Origin: Thermoanaerobaculia bacterium
Lineage (GTDB): Bacteria; Acidobacteriota; Thermoanaerobaculia; UBA5066; Gp7-AA6
Assembly: GCA_035763965.1 (NCBI GenBank)
Contig: DASUAD010000090.1
Span: 1-25,726, forward strand
Direction: 5' to 3'
Length of the DNA stretch: 25,726 nt
Every line of letters begins with the position of its first letter. Positions within the stretch are counted from its first letter, which is position 1. Both the position numbers and the translations under genes were made by a program. This document shows, piece after piece, positions 1 to 18,441 of the stretch. The notes below the pieces were generated by a model. The model was given only the letters and a program-made list of their open reading frames with translations. It was not told the origin of the DNA and did not search any database.

Positions 1-141
1 CGCGAAACGAATTCGGGGTTGCCGCGCCGCCGTTTTGCCTCTTCTCGAGGCGGTGAGGCGAGAACCAAGAAGAGGCTGAGCATGGAGTGGCCTCTCCCGT
101 TACGCTTCCGGACGCGGGTTCAACTCCCGCCGCCTCCACCA
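1..141 (+). ncRNA. ssrA: tmRNA, 3' portion (5' part lies outside the window)
   Basis: Ends TTCCGGACGCGGGTTCAACTCCCGCCGCCTCCACCA. T-arm GCGGG(114-118)/TTCAACT/CCCGC(126-130), acceptor 3' strand CGCCTCC plus ACCA (fits the G3-U70 Ala identity), upstream CTGAGCATGGAG resembling the conserved TAAGCATGTAG segment, and a helix GCCTCTTCT(37-45)/AGAAGAGGC(68-76). No D or anticodon arm, so not a tRNA. Confidence 0.85.
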
Positions 142-6454: not shown

Positions 6455-8185
6455 TCAGCTCTTTTCCCCGCGGGCCCGCCGAGGGTCTTCGATGACCATC
6501 GCGTCGATCGACTGGCCCGCCGGCCACATCGGGTAGCAGTTCTCCTCGGGGTCGCAGATGACGTTGACGACGGCCGGGCGGTCCTCCACGGCGAGGGCTT
6601 TCTGGAAGACCGCGTCGACCTCCTCGGGCCGCCGCGCCGTGAAGGCCGCGGCCCCGAGCGACTCGGCCACCTTCGCGAAGTCGGGGTTCCTCAGCTCGGT
6701 GGAGAAGAAGCGCTTGTCGTAGAAGAGCTCCTGCCACTGGCGGACCATGCCGAGGCCCTGGTTGTCGATGATGACCACCTTGATCGGTAGCCGCGCTTCG
6801 GCGGCGGTCACGAGGGCCTGCATCGTCATCTGGAAGCTGCCGTCCCCGTTAATGTTGACGACGAGCCGGTCGGGAAGCGCGCACTGCGCGCCGATTGCGG
6901 CGGGCAGTCCGTAGCCCATGGTCCCCAGGCCGCCCGAGGTGATGAAGCTGCGCGGCTCGTCGCACTTCCAGAACTGGGCGGCCCACATCTGGTGCTGCCC
7001 GACGTCGGTCGTGAGGATCGGCCGGCGGCTATTCGTGACGTGCCAGAGACGGTCGATGGCGAACTGCGGCAGGATCGGGCCATCGCCCTGCTCGTAGCGG
7101 AGGGGGTGCTTCGCCTTCCACTCCTCGACCCGCCGCCACCAGACGCCGGTGTCCGGGGCGCCCACGAGCGGCAAGAGCTGGTGGAGGACCGTCTTGGCGT
7201 CACCCACGAGTGGGAAGTCGGCCTTGCGGTTCTTCCCGATCTCCGCCTCGTCCACATCCAGGTGGATCACCTTGGCGTGCGGGGCGAAGGTGGCCAGCTT
7301 GCCGGTGATGCGGTCGTCGAAGCGGGCGCCGAGCGCGATGATGAGATCGCTCTCGTTCATGGCGTAGTTGGCGTAGACCGTGCCGTGCATGCCCAGCATC
7401 CCGAGCGACTGCGGGTCGGACTCGGGGAAGGCGCCCTTGGCCATGAGCGTCGTCGTGACGGGGATCCGGGTCTTCTTGGCCAGGCGCCTGACCTCCTCAG
7501 AGGCGCCGGCGGAGATGACCCCGCCGCCCACGTAGAGCACCGGCCGCCGCGCGTTCGTGATGGCCAGCGCGGCCCGGCGCAGGGCGGTGGGGTCGGCGCG
7601 GCGTTTCCGAGACGACGGCTCGGCCGCCTCCTCCTCGGGCTCGATCTGAGCCTGCAGGACGTCGCGCGGCACGTCCACGAGGACGGGACCGGGGCGGCCC
7701 GAGACCGCCAGATGAAACGCCTCGCGGATCGTCGGGATCAGGTCCTCCGGCTCCAAGACCAGCCAGTTGTGCTTCGTGACCGGCTGCGTGATGCCGAGGA
7801 TGTCGGCCTCCTGGAACCCGTCGCGGCCGATGAGCGGCCTGGTCACCTGAGCCGTCAGGGCAACGATGGGCGTGGAATCCATGTAGGCGTCGGTCAGGCC
7901 CGTCACGAGGTTCGTGGCCCCCGGCCCGGACGTGGCCAGGCAGACGCCCGCGCGTCCCGTGGCGCGCGCGAAGCCTTGGGCCGCGTGGGAGCCGCTCTGC
8001 TCGTGCCGCATCAGGAGGTGCGCGACGCCGGGCGTCTGGAAGAGGGCGTCGTAGAGAGGAAGGGCGGCACCGCCCGGGTGGCCGAAGATGTGAGTGACGC
8101 CCTGCCGGGCGAGCTCCTCGGCGAGCAGGTTGGCGGCGCGGACTCTTTCCCGGGGACGGGCGTCGGTGCGGAGAGCGGTGCTCAT
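6455..8185 (-). CDS. ilvB: Acetolactate synthase large subunit (576 aa)
   Basis: [66 protein letters not shown], ThDP motif GDGSFQMT...[11 protein letters not shown]. Confidence 0.96.
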
Positions 8186-9849
8186 GCCAGGGCCCCTTTC
8201 ATCTGGAATCCGGTGACCGCCCCGTCGGAGGCGGAAGAGACGAGCTGCGCGTACTTCGCGAGCGCGCCGCCCGAGTAGCGCGCGGCCGGCGCGGTCCAGC
8301 GCGCGCGGCGCGCATCGAGCGGCGCCTCCACGTCGATCCGCCGGGAGACGACGTCGATCGTGATCGGATCACCATCTTTGACGAGCCCGATCGGCCCCCC
8401 GGCAGCCGCCTCGGGCGACACGTGGCCGACCATGAGGCCGTGCGTGGCGCCGCTGAAGCGCCCGTCGGTCACGAGCGCGACGCTCTCGCCGAGGCCCTGC
8501 CCCACGAGCGCCGCCGTCACCGCGAGCATCTCGGGCATGCCCGGAGCGCCGCGCGGCCCTTCATAGCGGATGACGACGACCTCGCCCGGGAAGATCTCGC
8601 CGCGCTCGGCTGCTGCGAAGGCCGCGATCTCGCCGTCGAAGACGTGCGCGGGGCCGGTCGCGTGCAGGCGCTCGTGGCCCGCCAGCTTCACGACGCAGCC
8701 CTCGGGCGCGAGCGAGCCCCGGAGAATCGCCAGGCCGCCGGTCGATTTCACCGGCCTCTCGAGCGGTCGGATCACGGCCTGGCCCGGAGTCTCTTTCGCC
8801 TCGGAGGCTTCCGCGAAGAGCGTCCGGCCGGTCACGGTCATCTCGTCGTGAACGAGCCCGGCCTCCATGAGGCGCCTCGCCAGGAGGCGCGAGCCGCCGG
8901 CCCGGTCCATGTCCGGCGCGGTGAAGCGACCCCCGGGCTTGAGGTCCGCCAGGATCGGCGTCTTGGACGCGATGACGTCGAAGTCGTTGAGCGCGAGCGG
9001 AACGCCCGCCTCCCGCGCGATCGCGAGCAGGTGCAGGACCGCGTTCGTCGAGCCGCCCGTGGCCGCGACGGCAGCGATGGCGTTCTCGAACGCCCCGCGG
9101 GTGAGGAGGCGCGAGGGACGGCGGTCCTCCGCGAGACACCTCATCACGAGACGGCCGGCCTCGTATGCCGCCTCGTCCTTTCGCGGGTCATTCGCGGGGA
9201 CGTCGTTGGCGCCCATCGGCGAGATCCCGAGGAAGGTGAGAGCCGTCGCCATGGTGTTGGCCGTGAACTGGCCGCCGCAGGCGCCGGCGCCGGGACAGGC
9301 GCTCTCCTCCATGTTCGTCAGCTCCGCCGGGCTCATCCGGCCGGCGGCGTGTGAGCCGACCGCCTCGAACACGTCCTGGATCGTCACGTCGTGCCCATCC
9401 ACCCGGCCCGGCTGGATGGAGCCGCCGTAGATCGCCACGCCTGGGATGTCGAGCCGCGCCAGGGCCATGACGGTCGCGGGGATCGTCTTGTCGCAGCCGG
9501 AGATCGCCACGACGGCGTCGAGCGAGTGCCCCGCCACCGCCAGCTCGATGGAGTCCGCGATGACCTCGCGCGAGATGAGCGACGCCCGCATGCCGTCGGT
9601 GCCCATCGAGATGCCGTCGGAGACGGCGATCGTGTTGAACTCGAGCGGCGTCCCGCCGGAAGCGCGGATGCCTTCCTTCACTTTCTCCGCCAGGCGGCGC
9701 AGGTGGATGTTGCAGGGGGTGACCTCGGTCCAGGTGTTCGCGACGGCCACGAGCGGCCGGTCGATGTCCGCTCGGGTCAGGCCCGTCGCGCGCAGCATCG
9801 CGCGCGCCGGCGCGCGGGAGGGACCTTTCTTGATGGCGTCGCTTTTCAT
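8182..9849 (-). CDS. ilvD: Dihydroxy-acid dehydratase (555 aa)
   Basis: [63 protein letters not shown]. Confidence 0.96.
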
Positions 9850-9860
9850 CGGGCTCCCAG

Positions 9861-9896
9861 CAACAAAAAGCCCCGCGACCTTGTGAGGTGCGGGGC
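9861..9896 (-). terminator. Intrinsic terminator (attenuator) upstream of ilvD
   Basis: On the minus strand: GCCCCGC-ACC-TCACAA-GGT-C-GCGGGGC followed by TTTTTGTTG, 12 nt before the ilvD start region. Confidence 0.88.
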
Positions 9897-9954
9897 GTCT
9901 GATGCGACTTTGTCCTTCGTCTCAGCCGGCCCGCACCTCGGGAATGCGAAGGAC
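9885..9954 (-). promoter_or_regulatory. Antiterminator and competing helix of the ilv-leu attenuator
   Basis: 9930-9939 (CCCGCACCTC) is a perfect 10-bp complement of 9885-9894 in the terminator 5' arm. 9947-9954 (CGAAGGAC) is a perfect 8-bp complement of 9912-9919. Confidence 0.82.
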
Positions 9955-10008
9955 GAGGACGCCCTTGAAGGCGCCGGCAAAGACGAGAATGAGCTGTCTC
10001 GAGATCAT
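9922..10008 (-). CDS. ilv-leu operon leader peptide, 28 aa: MISRQLILVFAGAFKGVLVLRIPEVRAG
   Basis: ATG at 10008, TGA at 9922-9924. 11 of 28 residues are Ile/Leu/Val (LILV and VLVL clusters). Overlaps the attenuator helices. Confidence 0.85.
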   Translation of the reverse strand: MISRQLILVFAGAFKGVLVLRIPEVRAG

Positions 10009-11655: not shown

Positions 11656-13055
11656 CTCAGCATCGTCCTCACGTCCACGACCTCGCCCGCGACAGCGGCC
11701 GCCGCCACCATGGCCGGGCTCATCAAGAGCGTGCGCCCCGTCGGGCTCCCCTGCCGTCCCTTGAAGTTCCGGTTCGACGACGAGGCGCAGACCTGCCGTC
11801 CCTCCAGGCGATCCGGGTTCATGGCGAGGCACATCGAGCAGCCCGGCTCCCTCCATTCGAAGCCGGCTTCGCGAAACACGACGTCGAGCCCCTCGCGCTC
11901 GGCGGCGGCGCGCACGGCCTGCGAGCCGGGGACGACGAGGGCCTTCACTCCGGGCGCCACGCGGCGCCCCTTGGCCACGCGGCTTGCCTCGCGCAGATCC
12001 GAGAGGCGGCCGTTCGTGCACGATCCGATGAACGCGACGTCGATCCTGGTTCCGCGGATCGGCTCGCCCCCCCCGAAGCCCATGTAGGCGAGCGCCTCCG
12101 AGACGGCCTCTCGGGCGTTGTCCGAGACGTCGGACGGCTTCGGGATCCGCTCGGTTACGCCTACGGCCTGCCCGGGGTTGATCCCCCAGGTCACGGCCGG
12201 CTCGATCTTCGCCGCCTCGAAACGGACCCGGTCGTGGTATGGCGCGTCCGGGTCAGAGGCGCGTGAGAGCCACCAGGAGGCCGCCCGCGCAAAAAGCTCG
12301 GCCCGCGGCGCGTACAGGCGCCCGCGCAGGTACTCGACCGTCGTCGCGTCGGGGTTCACGTAGCCCGCGCGCGCTCCCCCCTCGATCGACATGTTGCAGA
12401 GCGTCAGGCGCTCCTCCATCGTCATCCGATCGACGGCGGAGCCTCCGTACTCGTAGGCGTAGCCGACGCCTCCCTTGACTCCGAGCCGGCGGATGATCGC
12501 GAGGATTACGTCCTTGGCGTAGACACCCGGCGAGAGCGTCCCCTCGACGTCGATGCGACGCACCCTCAAAGGGTCGAGGGCGAGACACTGGGATGCCAGA
12601 ACGTCGCGCACCTGCGAGGTCCCGACACCGAAGGCCAGCGCGCCGAAGGCCCCGTGCGTGGAGGTGTGGCTGTCGCCGCAGGCGATCGTCATCCCCGGCT
12701 GGGTCAGGCCGAGCTCCGGCCCGATGACGTGCACGATCCCCTGACGGTCGGAGCCGAGGCCGTGGAGCGGGATGCCGAACGCGCGGCAGTTCTTCTCCAG
12801 CTCCGTCAGCATCTCCTCGGCCTGGGGATCGCGGAACGGCCGGGCGACGTCGCGCGTCGGCACGATGTGGTCGACCGTGGCCACGGTCCGCGACGGAAAC
12901 GGCACGGTCCACCCGCGGCGCCGGATCATCGCGAAAGCCTGGGGGCTCGTCACCTCGTGGACGAGATGCAGCCCCACGAAGAGCTGCGTCTGCCCGGTCG
13001 GCAGGCGCCTCACCGCGTGCAAATCCCAGGTCTTCTGGAAGAGTGTCTCGCCCAT
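11652..13055 (-). CDS. leuC: 3-isopropylmalate dehydratase large subunit (467 aa)
   Basis: [67 protein letters not shown]. Confidence 0.97.
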
Positions 13056-13076
13056 CGCGGACTCAGTCTATCGAGC

Positions 13077-13160
13077 GCAGGTCGCTCCTTCACCACGGTC
13101 CTGATTCGCGGGGAGTCGGGGACGGGAAAGGAGCTGGTGGCTCACGCCCTCCACTACCAC
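13077..13160 (+). pseudogene. Fragment of a sigma54-dependent activator AAA+ domain
   Basis: Reads AGRSFTTVLIRGESGTGKELVAHALHYH, the NtrC-family Walker A signature. No start and no downstream GAFTGA. Confidence 0.8.
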
Positions 13161-13476
13161 GACGCTTCTTCTCTCCCAGCCGCCGGTCGATCTGCCGAGC
13201 ACTGATGGACAGAAGCCGCCTCTCCACCTCTGCCGGCAAGCAGAAACGCTTCCGAATCCAGGGCACCCAGACAGGCAGCAGCGCCTTCAACCGCATCGAC
13301 CAGGGATACCCCGCCGCCTCCCAGACCTCATGCAGAATCGAAATCACTCGCGGCCCGTACCGCAGTCGTGACCGCCTCCGCCGTCGCTCTGGCTCCTTCC
13401 CCGGCGGCGGACCGTTCAGCTTGCGGATCGCGTACTTGCGGTTGTACCCGCAGACCCGGCAAAACTCCTCCAGGAT
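13158..13476 (-). mobile_element. N-terminal fragment of an ISNCY-like (rve/DDE) transposase
   Basis: ILEEFCRVCGYNRKYAIRKLN...RYG...WEAAGYPWSMRLKALLPVW...LLSISARQIDRRL matches the N-terminus I recall for this family. Both ends are cut and the catalytic core is missing. Confidence 0.7.
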
Positions 13477-13481
13477 CGGCG

Positions 13482-13520
13482 CGACGATCGGCCTCAGGGT
13501 TACATTTTCGACGGCGCGAT
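13482..13520 (+). repeat. Motif CGACGATC-N7-GGGTTACATTTTC shared with 25086-25132, candidate IS end
   Basis: Same two-part motif and 7-nt spacing as 25106-25132. GGGTTACATTTTC is 12/13 identical to 25086-25098. Confidence 0.5.
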
Positions 13521-13528
13521 ACGGAGAC

Positions 13529-13557
13529 TTGACAAAAGGGACAGAAGCGCCTATGTT
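13529..13557 (+). promoter_or_regulatory. sigma70-type promoter of the sulfur operon
   Basis: TTGACA (13529-13534), 17-bp spacer, TATGTT (13552-13557). Confidence 0.75.
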
Positions 13558-13707
13558 GAAAAATGTAGTGCGTGTATCTCTGATTTCCCGTTGCACCTGT
13601 CGAATGCCCTGGGGGGACCTGGGGCCTTTGCTGGCGCGCGCGGAGCATCGAGGGACATCGAGAGGATGAGTACTCGAAGCTAGTCATTTCGTAAGCGTGG
13701 TGCAGTG

Positions 13708-13741
13708 AAGGGCCCGGGGCAACCCCCGGGCCCTTTTTTTT
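13708..13741 (+). terminator. Intrinsic terminator inside the 5' leader of the sulfur operon
   Basis: AAGGGCCCGGGG-CAAC-CCCCGGGCCCTT (12-bp stem) with a T8 run at 13734-13741. Lies between the promoter and the CAGGAGG RBS (13761-13767). Confidence 0.9.
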
Positions 13742-13774
13742 CCGGTCCCGGTACTCGAGTCAGGAGGCGAGTCT

Positions 13775-14041
13775 GTGCAAGTTGTGCCCGAACTCTGGTT
13801 TCCCGCCGACACGGCGCCTCGCGAGGTGCTCGCGAGGGCGGCTACGCGGTTTTCGCCCCGGATCGCGTTCGCGACGGGCTTCGGAATGGAGGGCTGTGTT
13901 CTTCTCCACATGATCGCCGCGCGCCGGCTACCGATCGACGTCTTCACGCTCGACACCGGCCTGCTCTTCCCCGAAACGTACGTGCTCTGGAAGCGGCTCG
14001 AAGCCCTCTATGGCCTGACGATCCGTGGGGTACAGCCCGAA
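13775..14041 (+). pseudogene. cysH: APS/PAPS reductase, N-terminal ~89 codons only
   Basis: FATGFGMEGCVLLHM, VFTLDTGLLFPETY, then similarity stops after IRGVQPE. No CC/CxxC cluster motif and no C-terminal ECGLH. Confidence 0.8.
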
Positions 14042-14202
14042 CCTCGGCGATCGGAAGGAGCTTCCCTTCCGTTCCGGCAGTCCTCTCCATATTCCCTTCA
14101 AAGAAATTCTCCTCTTCGTTCTCTTCGGGCATTTCCACTCACCCCGCCGCTCGCATCGGTGCGCGCGCGGCCCGCGGCTCACGAACCTGAAAGGAGTCAC
14201 CC

Positions 14203-15465
14203 ATGGCCGCCGTCGACGATCCCAAGACCCTCTGCCGAACGCGGCTCTCTTTCGCCGACGAGGCAGAGATCGACGCGTTCGTCGCGACACTCGAGCGCTT
14301 CGAGAAAGGCGAGCTTTCGCCCGACGAGTGGCGCGCCTACCGGTTGGTGCGCGGTACGTACAGCCAGCGGCAGGACGGAGACGTGCAAATGCTGCGCGTG
14401 AAGATTCCGCAGGGCATCCTGGATGTCGCGCAGCTTCACGCCCTCGCGGACGTGGCGGAGAGCTGGTCCCGCGGCTTCGGGCACATCACGACGCGGCAGA
14501 ACCTGCAGTTCCACTTCCTGAAGCTCCACGACGTGGAGCCCGCGATGCGGCGGCTGGCCGAAGCGGGCCTGACGACGCGCGAGGCCTGCGGAAACTCGGT
14601 CCGGAACATCACGGGCTGCCCATACGCCGGCGTCGCGGCGGACGAAGCCTTCGACGTGACGCCCTACGCCGAGGCCCTCACGCGCTATCTCCTGAGACAT
14701 CCGCTCAGCTCCTCACTGCCGCGAAAGTTCAAGATCGCCTTCGAAGGCTGCGTGGAGGAGCACACGTTCACACCGATCAACGACCTCGGGTTTCGCGCGC
14801 GGCTCGTCCTCGAGAATGGCGTTCCGCGCCGGGGCTTTCGTCTGACGGCGGGCGGCGGAACGGCCACGATGCCGAAGTCCGGACGCGTTCTTTACGAGTT
14901 CCTTCCCTCGGGCGAGATCCTCGCCGTCGCCGAGGCGATCCTCCGTGTCTTCCACCGGCTCGGAAACCGGAAGGACAAGGCGAAGGCCCGGATGAAGTTC
15001 CTCATAGCCGAGTTGGGGTGGGAGGGCTGGAAAAGAGAATTCGAGAGCTCCTTCGAAGAAGTCCGAAATGAAGGCCTGCCGTGGCTTCCGTTCGATGCCG
15101 AAGCGCCTCCTGTCGAGGACGAGCCGGGGACGTCGCGTGAGGCTGCGCCCTCGCTGGCCGAAGTCGCCGCGCAGGCCGTCGCCACACGCCTTCACGGGCC
15201 GGGTCTCCTTCCTTCGGTGGAACCCGTCTTTTCTTCGTCATCCGGCACGTTCACCCGGTGGTCCAAGACGAATGTCCGGCCCCAGAAGCAGGCCGGGGAG
15301 ACCGCGACGGCGTTCTTCCGGCGGGTGGAGCTCGGCCACGTCAAGCCGCTCCTCGCGGACCTGGAGAATGTCACTCCGGCGAACGTTAGGCCGGAGGATT
15401 TCATCGATCTCGAAGAAGAGGCAAACTTCACGATCGAGACGAAGGAAGGTGAATGTGCTGCCTAG
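14203..15465 (+). pseudogene. sir: Siroheme sulfite/nitrite reductase (Sir/NirA type) with a probable in-frame internal deletion (420 aa)
   Basis: GTYSQRQ, MLRVKIPQG, HITTRQNLQFH, EACGNSVRNITGCP, LPRKFKIAFEGC, NVRPQKQ. It then jumps at ~15297 to a 55-aa C-terminal tail. The second NIR_SIR repeat with the Fe-S/siroheme cysteines is missing. Confidence 0.75.
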
Positions 15466-15916
15466 CGTCGTTTTCGAGCCCGAAGTCCTCGAGGAGATCG
15501 CGCGAGCCGCTGCGAAGGCGTATCCGTACGAAGGCTGCGGCGCGCTGCTGGGTGAAGCGCGACACGTCCGCGTCACGCTGCCGCTCCCGAACACGGAGAA
15601 GGGAACGCCGCGCGTGCGGTTCGAGGTCTCGCCGAAGGACTACCTGGGCGTCGAGCGCGAGGCCGACGCGCGCGGCGTGAGGCTCCTCGGCTTCTGGCAC
15701 AGCCACCCCGACCACCCCGCCCGGCCCTCGGCCACGGATCGCGCTTTCGCCTGGGAAGGGCTCCTCACCGTGATCGTTTCGGTCGAGAGGGGCCGCTCCG
15801 CCGACATCGGCGCGTGGGAGATCCTCGGGCCGGAGTCCCCGTTCGAATCCGTCGAGATCGCGAGCCCGGGCGCCGCGGCGCTCGTCACCCCCCTTTCGAA
15901 AGAAGGAGAAACCTGA
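15455..15916 (+). CDS. JAB1/MPN (Mov34) metalloprotease, Mec/HcyD-like (153 aa)
   Basis: GTG start at 15455. JAMM motif E(GCG)...WHSHPDHPARPSATD. Confidence 0.9.
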   Translation: MLPSVVFEPEVLEEIARAAAKAYPYEGCGALLGEARHVRVTLPLPNTEKGTPRVRFEVSPKDYLGVEREADARGVRLLGFWHSHPDHPARPSATDRAFAWEGLLTVIVSVERGRSADIGAWEILGPESPFESVEIASPGAAALVTPLSKEGET

Positions 15917-16197
15917 TGCCCGTTCCCGTCCGAATCCCCACCCCGCTCCGGCGTTTCACGGGGGACCGCGCCGAGGTTTCCGTCAAGGCCGCAGATCTCT
16001 CCTCGCTCCTGGAGCGTCTCTTCGAGGAGTGTCCCGGGCTCCGGGGCCAGCTCCTCGGCGAGGATCGCAAGCTCCGGAGCTTCGTGAACATCTACGTGAA
16101 CGACGAGGACGTCCGCTTTCTCGACGGTCTGAAGACCGCTGTGAAGGACGGCGACTCCGTCGAAATCGTGCCGGCGATCGCGGGCGGCGGGGAATGA
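15916..16197 (+). CDS. MoaD/ThiS/CysO-family ubiquitin-like sulfur carrier (93 aa) with C-terminal extension
   Basis: VRIPTPLRRFT...RSFVNIYVNDEDVRFLDGLKTAVKDGDSVEIVPAIAGG followed by GE-stop. RBS GAAGGAG. Confidence 0.9.
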   Translation: MPVPVRIPTPLRRFTGDRAEVSVKAADLSSLLERLFEECPGLRGQLLGEDRKLRSFVNIYVNDEDVRFLDGLKTAVKDGDSVEIVPAIAGGGE

Positions 16198-17381
16198 GCC
16201 CCGGTCCCGGCACGCGGGCGACGCGGGGAGGCGAGGCACGCAAGAAGGGTTTCGACGCGGTCACCCAGCCGATCGTCTGTACGGCGACGTACGCCTTCGA
16301 CGACACGGCCGAGATTCGCGACCATTTCGAGGGGCGCGTCGCGCGCGAGGAGTACGGCCGCTACGGAAACCCCACCGTTCGGGCGGCCGAGAGAAAGATC
16401 GCGGAGCTCGACGGCGCCGAGGATTGCATTCTCTTCGCGAGCGGGATGGCGGCGGCGACGACCGCGCTGCTGGCCCTGTTGAAGAGCGGCCAGCACGTCG
16501 TCATGACGTCGGACTGCTACCGGAGGACGCGGCAGTTCGTGTCGAAAACGCTTCCGCGCTACGGAATCGAGCACACGTTCGTCGAGCCGGGAGACGACGG
16601 AGCTCTCGAGACGGCGATCCGGCCCGGGAAGACGCGGCTCATCCTGGCCGAGTCGCCCACGAACCCGTACCTCCGCGTGGCGGACCTGCCGCGCCTCGTC
16701 GCCCTCCGCGACCGGCATCCGGGCGTGAAGATCCTCATCGATTCCACGTTCGCGACGCCCGTCAACGAGCGCCCGCTGGAGATCGGCGTCGACCTCGTCC
16801 TCCACTCCGCCACCAAGTATCTCGGCGGCCACAACGACCTCTTGGCGGGGTCGCTCTCGGGAAGGGCGGACCTGATCTCCGGCCTGCGGGATCTGCGCGG
16901 GGTTCTCGGCGGGGTCCTCGACCCGCACGCGGCGTATCTGCTGCTCCGGGGCGTGAAGACTCTCGACCTCCGCGTGAGGCGTCAGAACGAGTCGGCTCTG
17001 CGCGTGGCCACCTGGCTGGAGTCCCACGAGCGCGTCGAGCGCGTCTTCTATCCGGGGCTGGCCAGCCACCCGGACCACGAAATCGCGAGACGGCAGATGT
17101 CCGGCTTCGGGGGCGTCGTGAGCTTCCTCGTGAAAGGGGATCTCGACGCGGCCTCGCGGTTCATCGACGCCACTCGGCTGCCCATCATCGCGCCCTCCCT
17201 CGGCGGCGTGGAGAGCCTCATCGAGCAGCCGGCGCTGATGTCCTTCTACGAGCTCACCACGGAAGAGCGGCGCGCCATCGGCATCTTCGACAACCTCGTG
17301 CGCCTCGCCGTGGGCATCGAGGATGCCGACGACCTCATCGCCGACCTCGAGCACGCGTTTTCCACGGCGGCTCGGGGATAG
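16194..17381 (+). CDS. metB: Cystathionine gamma-synthase-family PLP enzyme (395 aa)
   Basis: ATG overlaps the carrier stop. Motifs YGRYGNPT, FASGMAA, ESPTNP, DSTFATP, PLP lysine HSATKYLGGHND, SLGGVESL, RLAVGIED. Substrate specificity is uncertain. Confidence 0.8.
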   Translation: MSPGPGTRATRGGEARKKGFDAVTQPIVCTATYAFDDTAEIRDHFEGRVAREEYGRYGNPTVRAAERKIAELDGAEDCILFASGMAAATTALLALLKSGQHVVMTSDCYRRTRQFVSKTLPRYGIEHTFVEPGDDGALETAIRPGKTRLILAESPTNPYLRVADLPRLVALRDRHPGVKILIDSTFATPVNERPLEIGVDLVLHSATKYLGGHNDLLAGSLSGRADLISGLRDLRGVLGGVLDPHAAYLLLRGVKTLDLRVRRQNESALRVATWLESHERVERVFYPGLASHPDHEIARRQMSGFGGVVSFLVKGDLDAASRFIDATRLPIIAPSLGGVESLIEQPALMSFYELTTEERRAIGIFDNLVRLAVGIEDADDLIADLEHAFSTAARG

Positions 17382-17439
17382 GAACTTGCTTTTTCGGGTT
17401 GGGGGCGAGGGGCTCTCGCGTCGACCCGCGCGAGAGAGC

Positions 17440-18260
17440 TTCTCGCGCTTGCGGAGATGATCGAGGATGCGCTTGATGACAGCGGGTTGGGTGATGAAGC
17501 CGACGACTCTCATTTCGCCTCCGCAGCGTAGACACACGAGGGGGTCGACTTCGTAGACGCGCCGAATAAGATCCGCCCAGCGGCGCCTGAGGGCCGCGCG
17601 GTCCGCCCCCTCAGGCGTTGGCTCCGCCATCGACGCCTCGCTCGAGACGGAGGGCTGGGGCGGCGCCTCGGCCTTGCGGCGCTCGCCCGGGGCCACGTTG
17701 GAGTAGGCGCCGTAGTAGCGGACCAAATGGCGCCTTGGGTCCGGGATCTGCACGAGGACCCGGGCCACAAACTCCATCGCGTCTATCCTCTCGCTTTCCG
17801 TCGGCTCGAGCTGGTCATGCCTCCTCTTGCGCGCGTAGAGGACCTCGTGCGAGCCGGGCGTCAAGCGTACCCGGGAGAGGCTCACCGGGGAGCGCATCAT
17901 GTAGCGGACCAGCGCCTCGAGACCCTGGCTATCCCCGGCGGGCACATAGACCCGGTTGTGGACGGAGAAGCCGCTTCGCCTCCACGACAACAGCAGCTCG
18001 ATCCGCTCCTGGCTCAGCAGCCCTCTTCGCCGGAGGAGGGCTGGGACCTTGTGGCGGAAGAGCTCTTGGGCCGCTGCCTCATCCACATACGGCACCAGGA
18101 TCCCCTCCCCTGAAGCCGTCCAGCCTCCCCGGGAAACCAGCGCGTGGACATACGCGTGGAAGTTCGCCCTGTCGCCGAAAGTCTGGACCACCGACACCAA
18201 CCCAGGCCGAAAACCCTTCTCCTCCGCGACGGCTGCCGCCATGAGCTCCTTCACGGTCTC
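17440..18260 (-). mobile_element. IS91-family (Y2 HUH) transposase remnant, 5'-truncated and degenerate
   Basis: VVQTFG..NFHAYVHAL (HUH degenerate), SGFSVHN, RYMMRSP, HLVRYYGAYSN, WADLIRRVYEVDPLVCLRCGGEMRVVGFI...ILDHL. No N-terminal Zn domain and no stop at the expected position. Confidence 0.85.
17883..17994 (+). repeat. 112-bp IS91 segment duplicated at 24877-24988
   Basis: 111/112 identical, direct orientation, 6994 bp apart. The single difference is G17906 vs A24900. Confidence 0.95.
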
Positions 18261-18441
18261 TCTTGTGGTGTCCGTTTGTCTTGACCTTGTCGCCCAAGCA
18301 GCTGCTGCCCATTGTGATGGTTGTGCTTGGCCCCTCTGGTCCCTTGGGCCCCTTGCCCTGGGCCACGGCCGCGCCCGCCCAGGCGAAGACACTGAGCAGG
18401 ACCAAGATGGCGAGAAGAGAGCGTTTCGTACGATTCATCAT
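18261..18441 (-). pseudogene. 5' fragment (~60 codons) of a secreted protein, cut by the IS91 remnant
   Basis: RBS AAGGGGAG, then MMNRTKRSLLAILVLLSVFAWAGAAVA|QG (basic n-region, hydrophobic h-region, AxA site). The frame then runs into IS91 sequence. Confidence 0.6.

Follow-up and report, generated by a model that had tools for sequence, protein, structure and literature searches.

The leader of a sulfur-assimilation operon in the window, by which we mean the whole 25,726-nt stretch of a Thermoanaerobaculia contig (DASUAD010000090.1) analysed here, is in our estimation, with a probability of about 0.8, a leader-peptide transcription attenuator in which the ribosome would report the supply of charged tRNA-Cys. 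This reading draws on the sequence, on its comparison with relatives and on models of RNA folding, and it narrows the original prediction, which had offered either a Cys/Met ribosome-stalling attenuator or a riboswitch: the comparative data strongly favour the Cys attenuator and speak neither for the Met part nor for the riboswitch. The copy in the window is a slightly eroded member of a family of such leaders, and it stands before an operon in which cysH and the sulfite reductase gene (sir) are damaged.

In the mechanism that we propose, the transcript would begin a few bases before GTG 13568 and a 33-codon ORF would be read with little or no 5' leader. With ample cysteine the ribosome would pass the Cys codons, a hairpin (P1) would re-form behind it, the terminator (13707-13736 plus U8) would form and transcription would halt before the structural genes. 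With Cys-tRNA scarce, the ribosome would stall at TGC 13592 or TGT 13598 and cover region 1; region 2, once freed, would pair with 13703-13718 and sequester the terminator 5' arm, and RNA polymerase would then continue into the sulfur-assimilation and homocysteine genes. In this model the response to cysteine in vivo and the kinetic order of folding are inferred, and the size of the ribosome footprint is assumed. The elements referred to below are as follows.

13529..13534, + strand: -35 box TTGACA (promoter scan; conserved among relatives)
13552..13557, + strand: -10 box TATGTT, spacer 17 nt (promoter scan)
13568..13669, + strand: leader ORF, GTG start, 33 codons plus TGA (ORF listing; the homologous ORF of the relative L163 ends at the same TGA)
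13592..13606, + strand: putative sensor codons TGC-ACC-TGT-CGA-ATG, Cys-Thr-Cys-Arg-Met (aligned with the relatives' Cys codons)
13606..13613, + strand: region 1, 5' arm of hairpin P1 (folding; within reach of a ribosome stalled at 13598 or 13604)
13618..13633, + strand: region 2, P1 3' arm (13618-13625) or 5' strand of the antiterminator (folding, duplex energies)
13703..13719, + strand: region 3, 5' arm of the terminator (13707-13719) and the 4 nt before it (pairs with region 2 or region 4)
13724..13741, + strand: region 4, 3' arm of the terminator (13724-13736) with its eight-T run (13734-13741) (terminator scan)
13764..13768, + strand: Shine-Dalgarno sequence GGAGG of the first structural gene (outside the switch structures; conserved in L163)
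13775..14044, + strand: cysH remnant, first 89 codons of an APS/PAPS reductase, GTG start at 13775 (profile and relatives' alignment)
14203..17381, + strand: rest of the probably co-transcribed unit, namely sulfite reductase, JAB protease, ThiS-like carrier and MetY-like PLP enzyme (domain matches)

A promoter followed closely by a cysteine-coding leader

The good sigma-70 promoter that had been predicted before the leader is borne out: TTGACA-17-TATGTT at 13529-13557 agrees with the consensus at 10 of 12 positions and is the sole match within 13000-14200, where shuffled sequence yields 0.2. TTGACA occupies the matching place in the leaders of all ten relatives described below, and TTGAC(A/G/T) does so in most Vicinamibacteria leaders. 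From the sequence we expect the window transcript to start at about 13563-13565, 3-5 nt 5' of GTG 13568. Because the start codon follows the -10 box so closely throughout (by 10 nt in the window, by 8-10 nt in the ten relatives and mostly by 6-10 nt in Vicinamibacteria), the leader ORF appears to be leaderless or nearly so across the family, and upstream of GTG 13568 there is no Shine-Dalgarno sequence. A 271-nt contig from an RNA-labelled sequencing run starts at 13556, such contigs being without direction and possibly containing DNA. At the expected transcript start there is also an ATG-TAG, a start codon followed at once by a stop (13563-13570, ATGTAGTG), whose TAG overlaps the leader GTG by one base and which is not conserved in L163.

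The leader ORF lies directly 3' of the promoter and 5' of the regulated genes, on the same strand, a layout repeated in relatives, and judging from its sequence it is probably translated. Its peptide begins VRVSLISRCTCRMPWG..., with TGC at 13592, TGT at 13598 and ATG at 13604; the near-leaderless uORF running from GTG 13568 to TGA 13669, with Cys-Thr-Cys codons and a Met soon after, is thus present just as it was first described. An NCBIfam search with the leader peptide returned no match, and the two Cys codons of the window, taken alone, would not be significant.

Predicted mutually exclusive folds of the leader RNA

The strong terminator expected before cysH is found at 13707-13736, with a stem of 13 pairs (10 of them G-C), a CAAC loop and a hairpin energy of -27.8 kcal/mol, followed by the eight T. 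P1 joins 13606-13613 to 13618-13625 at -14.1 kcal/mol. The competing antiterminator consists of 13618-13623 paired with 13713-13718 plus 13625-13633 paired with 13703-13711, together 15 bp at -27.1 kcal/mol; the original prediction had seen CCTGGGGCCTTT pairing with the terminator 5' arm over 11 bp with one bulge, and this pairing is real and longer than had been supposed. Region 1 resembles region 3 in sequence and region 2 resembles region 4, which is why 2:3 pairing is possible at all. The window holds the mutually exclusive pairings 1:2, 2:3 and 3:4, with region 1 inside the assumed footprint of the stalled ribosome.

A stalled ribosome is known from ribosome footprinting to reach 12 nt downstream. 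When the leader was folded unmasked, the full-length minimum free energy (MFE) structure had -80.1 kcal/mol and contained both P1 and the terminator; with a mask that began at the start codon and reached 12 nt beyond the last Cys codon (TGT 13598), it had -62.7 kcal/mol, and the terminator was lost to the 15-bp antiterminator. Enforcing the two forms gave -83.3 kcal/mol for the terminator form versus -74.1 kcal/mol for the antiterminator form. The window leader as a whole folds better than its shuffles (z = -3.7, 0/200), and its 2:3 duplex is stronger than that of all 200 shuffles (z = -3.9).

Two further helices had been proposed within the leader. Both can form, TGCACC (13592-13597) with GGTGCA (13699-13704) as a perfect 6-mer of -8.5 kcal/mol and 13576-13597 with 13642-13667 as an imperfect helix of -18.5 kcal/mol, but both are weak and lie outside the conserved design.

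A family of cysteine leaders upstream of cysH

A BLAST search with the leader DNA found no homologue in 40 related genomes. Homologous leaders had to be reached through cysH, because the leader itself diverges too fast for BLAST; with the N-terminal cysH fragment as query, full-length cysH was recovered from ten genomes, nine in the window's genus and one in a different family. These ten relatives (Acidobacteriota, Thermoanaerobaculia) are arranged alike upstream of cysH: TTGACA is followed after a 17-nt spacer by a -10-like hexamer, the start codon lies 8-10 nt beyond it, and the short ORF (for example VNANLIARCCCCRV...) ends at a stop codon ahead of a strong terminator, which stands 75-130 nt before cysH. 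A near-leaderless ORF containing CCCC is found in the nine same-genus genomes and in the one from another family.

In a survey of 80 cysH loci from reference genomes, at least three Cys within six residues of an upstream short ORF were found at 30 loci. Three or more consecutive Cys codons upstream likewise occurred at 30/80 on the sense strand, compared with 1/80 on the antisense strand. The carriers belong to Thermoanaerobaculia, to Vicinamibacteria/Luteitalea and, in one case, to a Myxococcaceae MAG with two loci, all the others being Acidobacteriota; Kofleriaceae and Planctomycetota mostly have no Cys leader. The layout common to the relatives runs from a TTGACA promoter through a near-leaderless start, 3-6 Cys codons, a small GC hairpin and a stop codon to the terminator.

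The spacing of these parts is regular. Counted from the last Cys codon in 29 leaders, a P1-like GC hairpin begins after 5-12 nt in every one and the stop codon comes after 45-69 nt, with the terminator another 10-30 nt on. The best partner of the terminator 5' arm lies mostly 8-21 nt past the last Cys codon and is usually the P1 3' arm. We used duplex energies against shuffles, in place of MFE masking, as the family-wide test, and the 2:3 duplex beats its shuffles in 28 of the 29 leaders (median z = -1.9), the window being among the strongest at -3.9. Masked and unmasked MFE were dropped for this purpose as too crude: the very stable terminators of many relatives stay in the MFE structure whether or not the mask is applied, and several Vicinamibacteria show the reverse behaviour, since one long duplex can form between regions 1-2 and 3-4.

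A covariation analysis of homologous cysH leaders had been proposed as a check. Compensatory changes occur in 3 of the 5 core pairs of P1 (for example CGGG/CCCG versus CGGA/TCCG) and in 3 pairs of the terminator (for example G-C versus A-U), 96.6% of terminator cells being paired across 30 leaders, and the observed covariation score for P1 plus terminator was reached by 0/500 shuffles. Complementarity between regions 2 and 3 is conserved, with 74-85% of cells paired, although real covariation there is weak. A covariance model of the whole family was dropped because the post-Cys hairpin sits in different registers among clades. Across clades, conservation extends to the Cys codons, the simple hairpin that follows them, the place of the in-frame stop and the terminator, while spacer sequence and length vary.

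The terminator also bears on how the leader would act. Near-leaderless Cys-codon short ORFs are found at mycobacterial loci too, and the window leader might by that likeness be a translational attenuator of the mycobacterial type, in which the stall frees a sequestered ribosome-binding site and termination is unaffected. We consider this highly improbable, given that nearly all members of the Cys-leader family have a canonical intrinsic terminator with a U tract and that GGAGG 13764-13768 is unpaired in the predicted folds, 28 nt beyond the terminator stem.

Compensating indels and the sparse-Cys subtype

The closest relative, L163, is a metagenome contig with an intact cysH of 237 residues, which over residues 1-89 is 85% identical to the stump in the window; the leader peptide of L163 reads MCRCTCRMPWG.... 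Over the stretch that starts with the Cys codons and ends with the terminator, L163 and the window differ only by a few substitutions and by two indels of 1 nt. The first indel is in the P1 loop and the second about 35 nt later; the peptide between them is altered and the same TGA is restored. Since the indels compensate in this way, selection acts on the RNA and on the end point of translation, not on the peptide, which argues both against a functional small protein and against a riboswitch.

A riboswitch, with the terminator as expression platform and SAM, SAH, Cys, sulfide or another metabolite as its ligand, would suit a long structured 5' region that folds better than shuffles and ends in a terminator before sulfur genes. 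Searched at the gathering score over the whole window, Rfam gave no match in the leader and a tmRNA fragment at 1-141 only; with E up to 10, the best sub-threshold matches aligned to the terminator hairpin alone and looked like chance. No covariance model of SAM-I, SAM-II, SAM-IV, SAM-V, SAM-VI, SAM/SAH, SAH or T-box matched, in agreement with the earlier failure to fit SAM-I, SAM-IV, SAH or T-box consensus, for which an Rfam check had been advised. No conserved ligand-binding fold was found across the leaders, only the Cys codons, simple hairpin, in-frame stop and terminator listed above, and a reading frame and stop codon kept through compensating indels are needless for a riboswitch. We accordingly regard a metabolite-binding riboswitch as extremely improbable. 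The match at window 1-141 is the 3' part of a tmRNA gene.

Much the same evidence bears on a stand-alone gene, whose terminated transcript of about 180 nt or whose 33-residue peptide would act in trans. Promoter and terminator do delimit a discrete short transcript, and there is a weak sub-threshold likeness to sRNA models, which comes from the terminator only; yet the peptide sequence is not conserved even against L163, the element always lies directly upstream of sulfur-assimilation genes on the same strand, and the genome has no second copy. There is very little chance, in our view, that a stand-alone gene is the explanation, though the leader could still have a role in trans on top of attenuation.

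Elsewhere in the window's genome, a search for Cys-rich short ORFs followed by a terminator yielded no further leader; two other matches were rejected as Cys leaders and look like the C-termini of ordinary genes, one ending GGCGCGKSF. A multi-locus Cys regulon in relatives was sought through TGYTGYTGYTGY, and the other all-TGT sites (TGTTGTTGTTGT) inspected lack the layout of short ORF then terminator and look like antisense of coding sequence. Among the sites inspected there was thus no sign of such a regulon. The window does hold a second candidate leader-peptide attenuator, also pointed out originally, at 9861-10008 on the minus strand, with an Ile/Leu/Val-rich short ORF (MISRQLILVFAGAFKGVLVLRIPEVRAG) whose start codon lies near a promoter-like TTGACG, a GC hairpin and T run after the ORF, and a 555-aa ORF (8182-9849) downstream.

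The residues aligned to the window's sensor codons are MCRCTCRM in L163, MCCMCTM in G040, MRCRCIT in G216 and CCCC-CCCCCC in other clades. Relative to L163, a TGC to TCC change has cost the window one Cys codon, leaving two against three, and an ATG to ATT change has cost it one Met codon. With L163, G040 (MCCMCTMAWG) and G216 (MRCRCITAWG), it forms a sparse-Cys subtype in which C-x-C, with Met codons on its flanks, is followed by a W-G hairpin. This subtype might be a dual sensor, in which a stall at either Cys or Met frees the antiterminator: a ribosome halted at ATG 13604 would mask region 1 more fully than one halted at TGT 13598. If true, a dual sensor would fit an operon that joins sulfate reduction to a protein-thiocarboxylate (JAB/ThiS-like/MetY-like) route to homocysteine. 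We rejected a tie between Met co-sensing and metY, since Vicinamibacteria leaders also have Met beside the Cys run, yet their metY homologues, by position, apparently lie away from the operon, and overall we think dual sensing distinctly unlikely.

A predicted switch before a damaged operon

The original prediction took cysH to be intact. This was wrong, as just codons 1-89 match PAPS/APS reductase; the stump is followed by about 155 nt of CT-rich filler (14045-14200) of no recognisable origin. The sulfite reductase gene (14203-15465) has suffered a clean in-frame loss of residues 366-560, joined at 15297/15298, which leaves one NIR_SIR repeat. In G040 and G216 the operon reads leader-cysH-sat/cysC-cysG-sir-JAB-ThiS-(one more gene)-metY, and in G003, a genus relative, leader-cysH-sat/cysC-cysG-sir. 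The window's operon is without sat, cysC, cysG and the gene that G040 has between the ThiS-like gene and metY, while its JAB, ThiS-like and MetY-like genes align over their full length with their counterparts in G040 and G216. No other promoter-like site or strong terminator was found within 13740-17700, and therefore the genes through 17381 are probably still transcribed via the attenuator. With a cysH stump and an internally deleted sir, sulfate reduction proper cannot be its present regulatory role.

The damaged arrangement is not an assembly artefact. Independent public metagenome contigs span both joins, covering 13349-14502 in one run and 13906-15352 in another. Across four independent metagenome runs there are no variants inside 13558-13745, which hints that the leader is still under constraint; across metagenome runs the cysH stump and filler show several substitutions and one 1-nt insertion (13873, one run). 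Metagenome contigs also fork at 13511, just 5' of the -35 box, where the upstream sequence differs in two runs, and two metagenome runs contain an allele in which 181 other letters bridge 13935 and 15295; from the fork and this variant it follows that several rearranged alleles of the locus coexist in nature. Window 13400-15700 recurs near word-for-word (0.8-0.95 of sampled 31-mers) in more than 12 groundwater, soil and sediment runs from different studies, an unusually wide spread for near-identical DNA of an uncultured acidobacterium.

The same assembly (G000) holds a second, genus-type sulfate-assimilation operon in pieces (the end of cysC, cysG, a methylase gene and sir) on contigs C214 and C239. 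The leader and cysH of this second operon are absent from the assembly, and there is no intact cysH in the 92%-complete genome. On the upstream side of the sulfur unit, the minus strand carries a leuC-like gene as well as transposase debris. A minus-strand ORF at 13090-13500 has no Pfam match and presumably resembles a transposase N-terminus, and a fragment of a Y2_Tnp (IS91-type) transposase at 17400-18392, minus strand, also flanks the sulfur locus.

It may be asked, then, whether the window leader is a relic, a descendant of a Cys attenuator that gives no useful regulation and is passively carried by an operon copy that is decaying and flanked by transposons. The truncation of cysH at codon 89, the deletion in sir, the absence of sat, cysC, cysG and G040's extra gene, the Cys and Met codons lost relative to L163, the survival of a second operon in pieces on other contigs and the transposase remnants on the flanks are all in keeping with such a history. 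However, every part of the leader from promoter to terminator (ORF, stop codon, P1 and antiterminator included) is intact, and no member of the whole set has a cleaner predicted switch; the core is near-identical to that of L163 despite a cysH protein identity of just 85%; the four metagenomes show no leader variants; and the JAB, ThiS-like and MetY-like genes downstream are full length, with no other promoter-like site before them. On balance we hold a relic to be unlikely and keep to a working Cys attenuator as the preferred reading.

Relation to known attenuators

The classical leader-peptide transcription attenuators are those of trpL, hisL, leuL, thrL, pheL and ilvL in E. coli and Salmonella. 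Like them, the window element has a promoter-proximal short ORF with codons for the end-product amino acid, biosynthetic genes downstream, and four segments that can pair as 1:2, 2:3 or 3:4, with 3:4 an intrinsic terminator. Unlike them, it would sense cysteine, its ORF is seemingly leaderless or near-leaderless and has no Shine-Dalgarno sequence, it comes from Acidobacteriota, and it shares no sequence homology with them. Moreover, a classical leader ORF stops in region 2, whereas that of the window extends about 20 codons past it.

The leader had been put forward as new, which holds only in part, since Cys leader peptides are already in the literature, both from Actinobacteria and from a cysS leader of Rhodobacterales. 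Upstream of actinobacterial cys operons, candidate leader peptides with Cys-codon runs, but without terminators, were predicted (Seliverstov et al. 2005, PMC1262725), and in mycobacteria leaderless polycysteine short ORFs were shown to work by exposing a ribosome-binding site (Canestrari et al. 2020, bioRxiv 10.1101/834739 / Mol Microbiol 114:93), the authors leaving open whether other loci act on transcription (bioRxiv 10.1101/834739). As in mycobacteria, a Cys-codon short ORF heads a cysteine-related operon and ribosome stalling would be the sensor. In contrast to the mycobacterial locus, where the ribosome-binding site is unmasked and no terminators were found, the window has a strong intrinsic terminator with an antiterminator and belongs to an unrelated phylum; its two Cys codons are non-adjacent (C-T-C), whereas the mycobacterial criterion is at least two consecutive Cys codons, which most of the window's relatives do have.

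The uORFC-8-2 motif upstream of Rhodobacterales cysS has been predicted to be a ribosome-mediated attenuator sensing Cys-tRNA (Brewer et al. 2021, PMC8632094). It shares with the window a short ORF with two Cys codons (conserved in uORFC-8-2) and then an intrinsic terminator. It differs in controlling a tRNA synthetase gene, in having its Cys codons inside the first stem and in being alphaproteobacterial, and it is itself a prediction only. Our literature search found no paper on such a Cys leader element in Acidobacteria. By its sequence, then, the window element has the features of a classical leader-peptide attenuator and falls outside the mycobacterial translational class and any Rfam family.

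Significance

The mechanism itself is of a textbook kind. Acidobacteria are abundant soil bacteria that are hard to grow, knowledge of their gene regulation is thin, and in a 2010 survey almost no predicted acidobacterial attenuators had an assigned function. The switch in the window has outlived part of the operon for which it was built. The family to which it belongs offers a simple handle for annotating sulfur regulation in metagenomes and a natural test case for the coupling of leaderless translation to transcription termination. Taken at the level of sequence and folding models, the element points to acidobacterial sulfate assimilation being under the control of a cysteine sensor that would be read by the ribosome, made of an apparently leaderless mini-gene and a canonical terminator.
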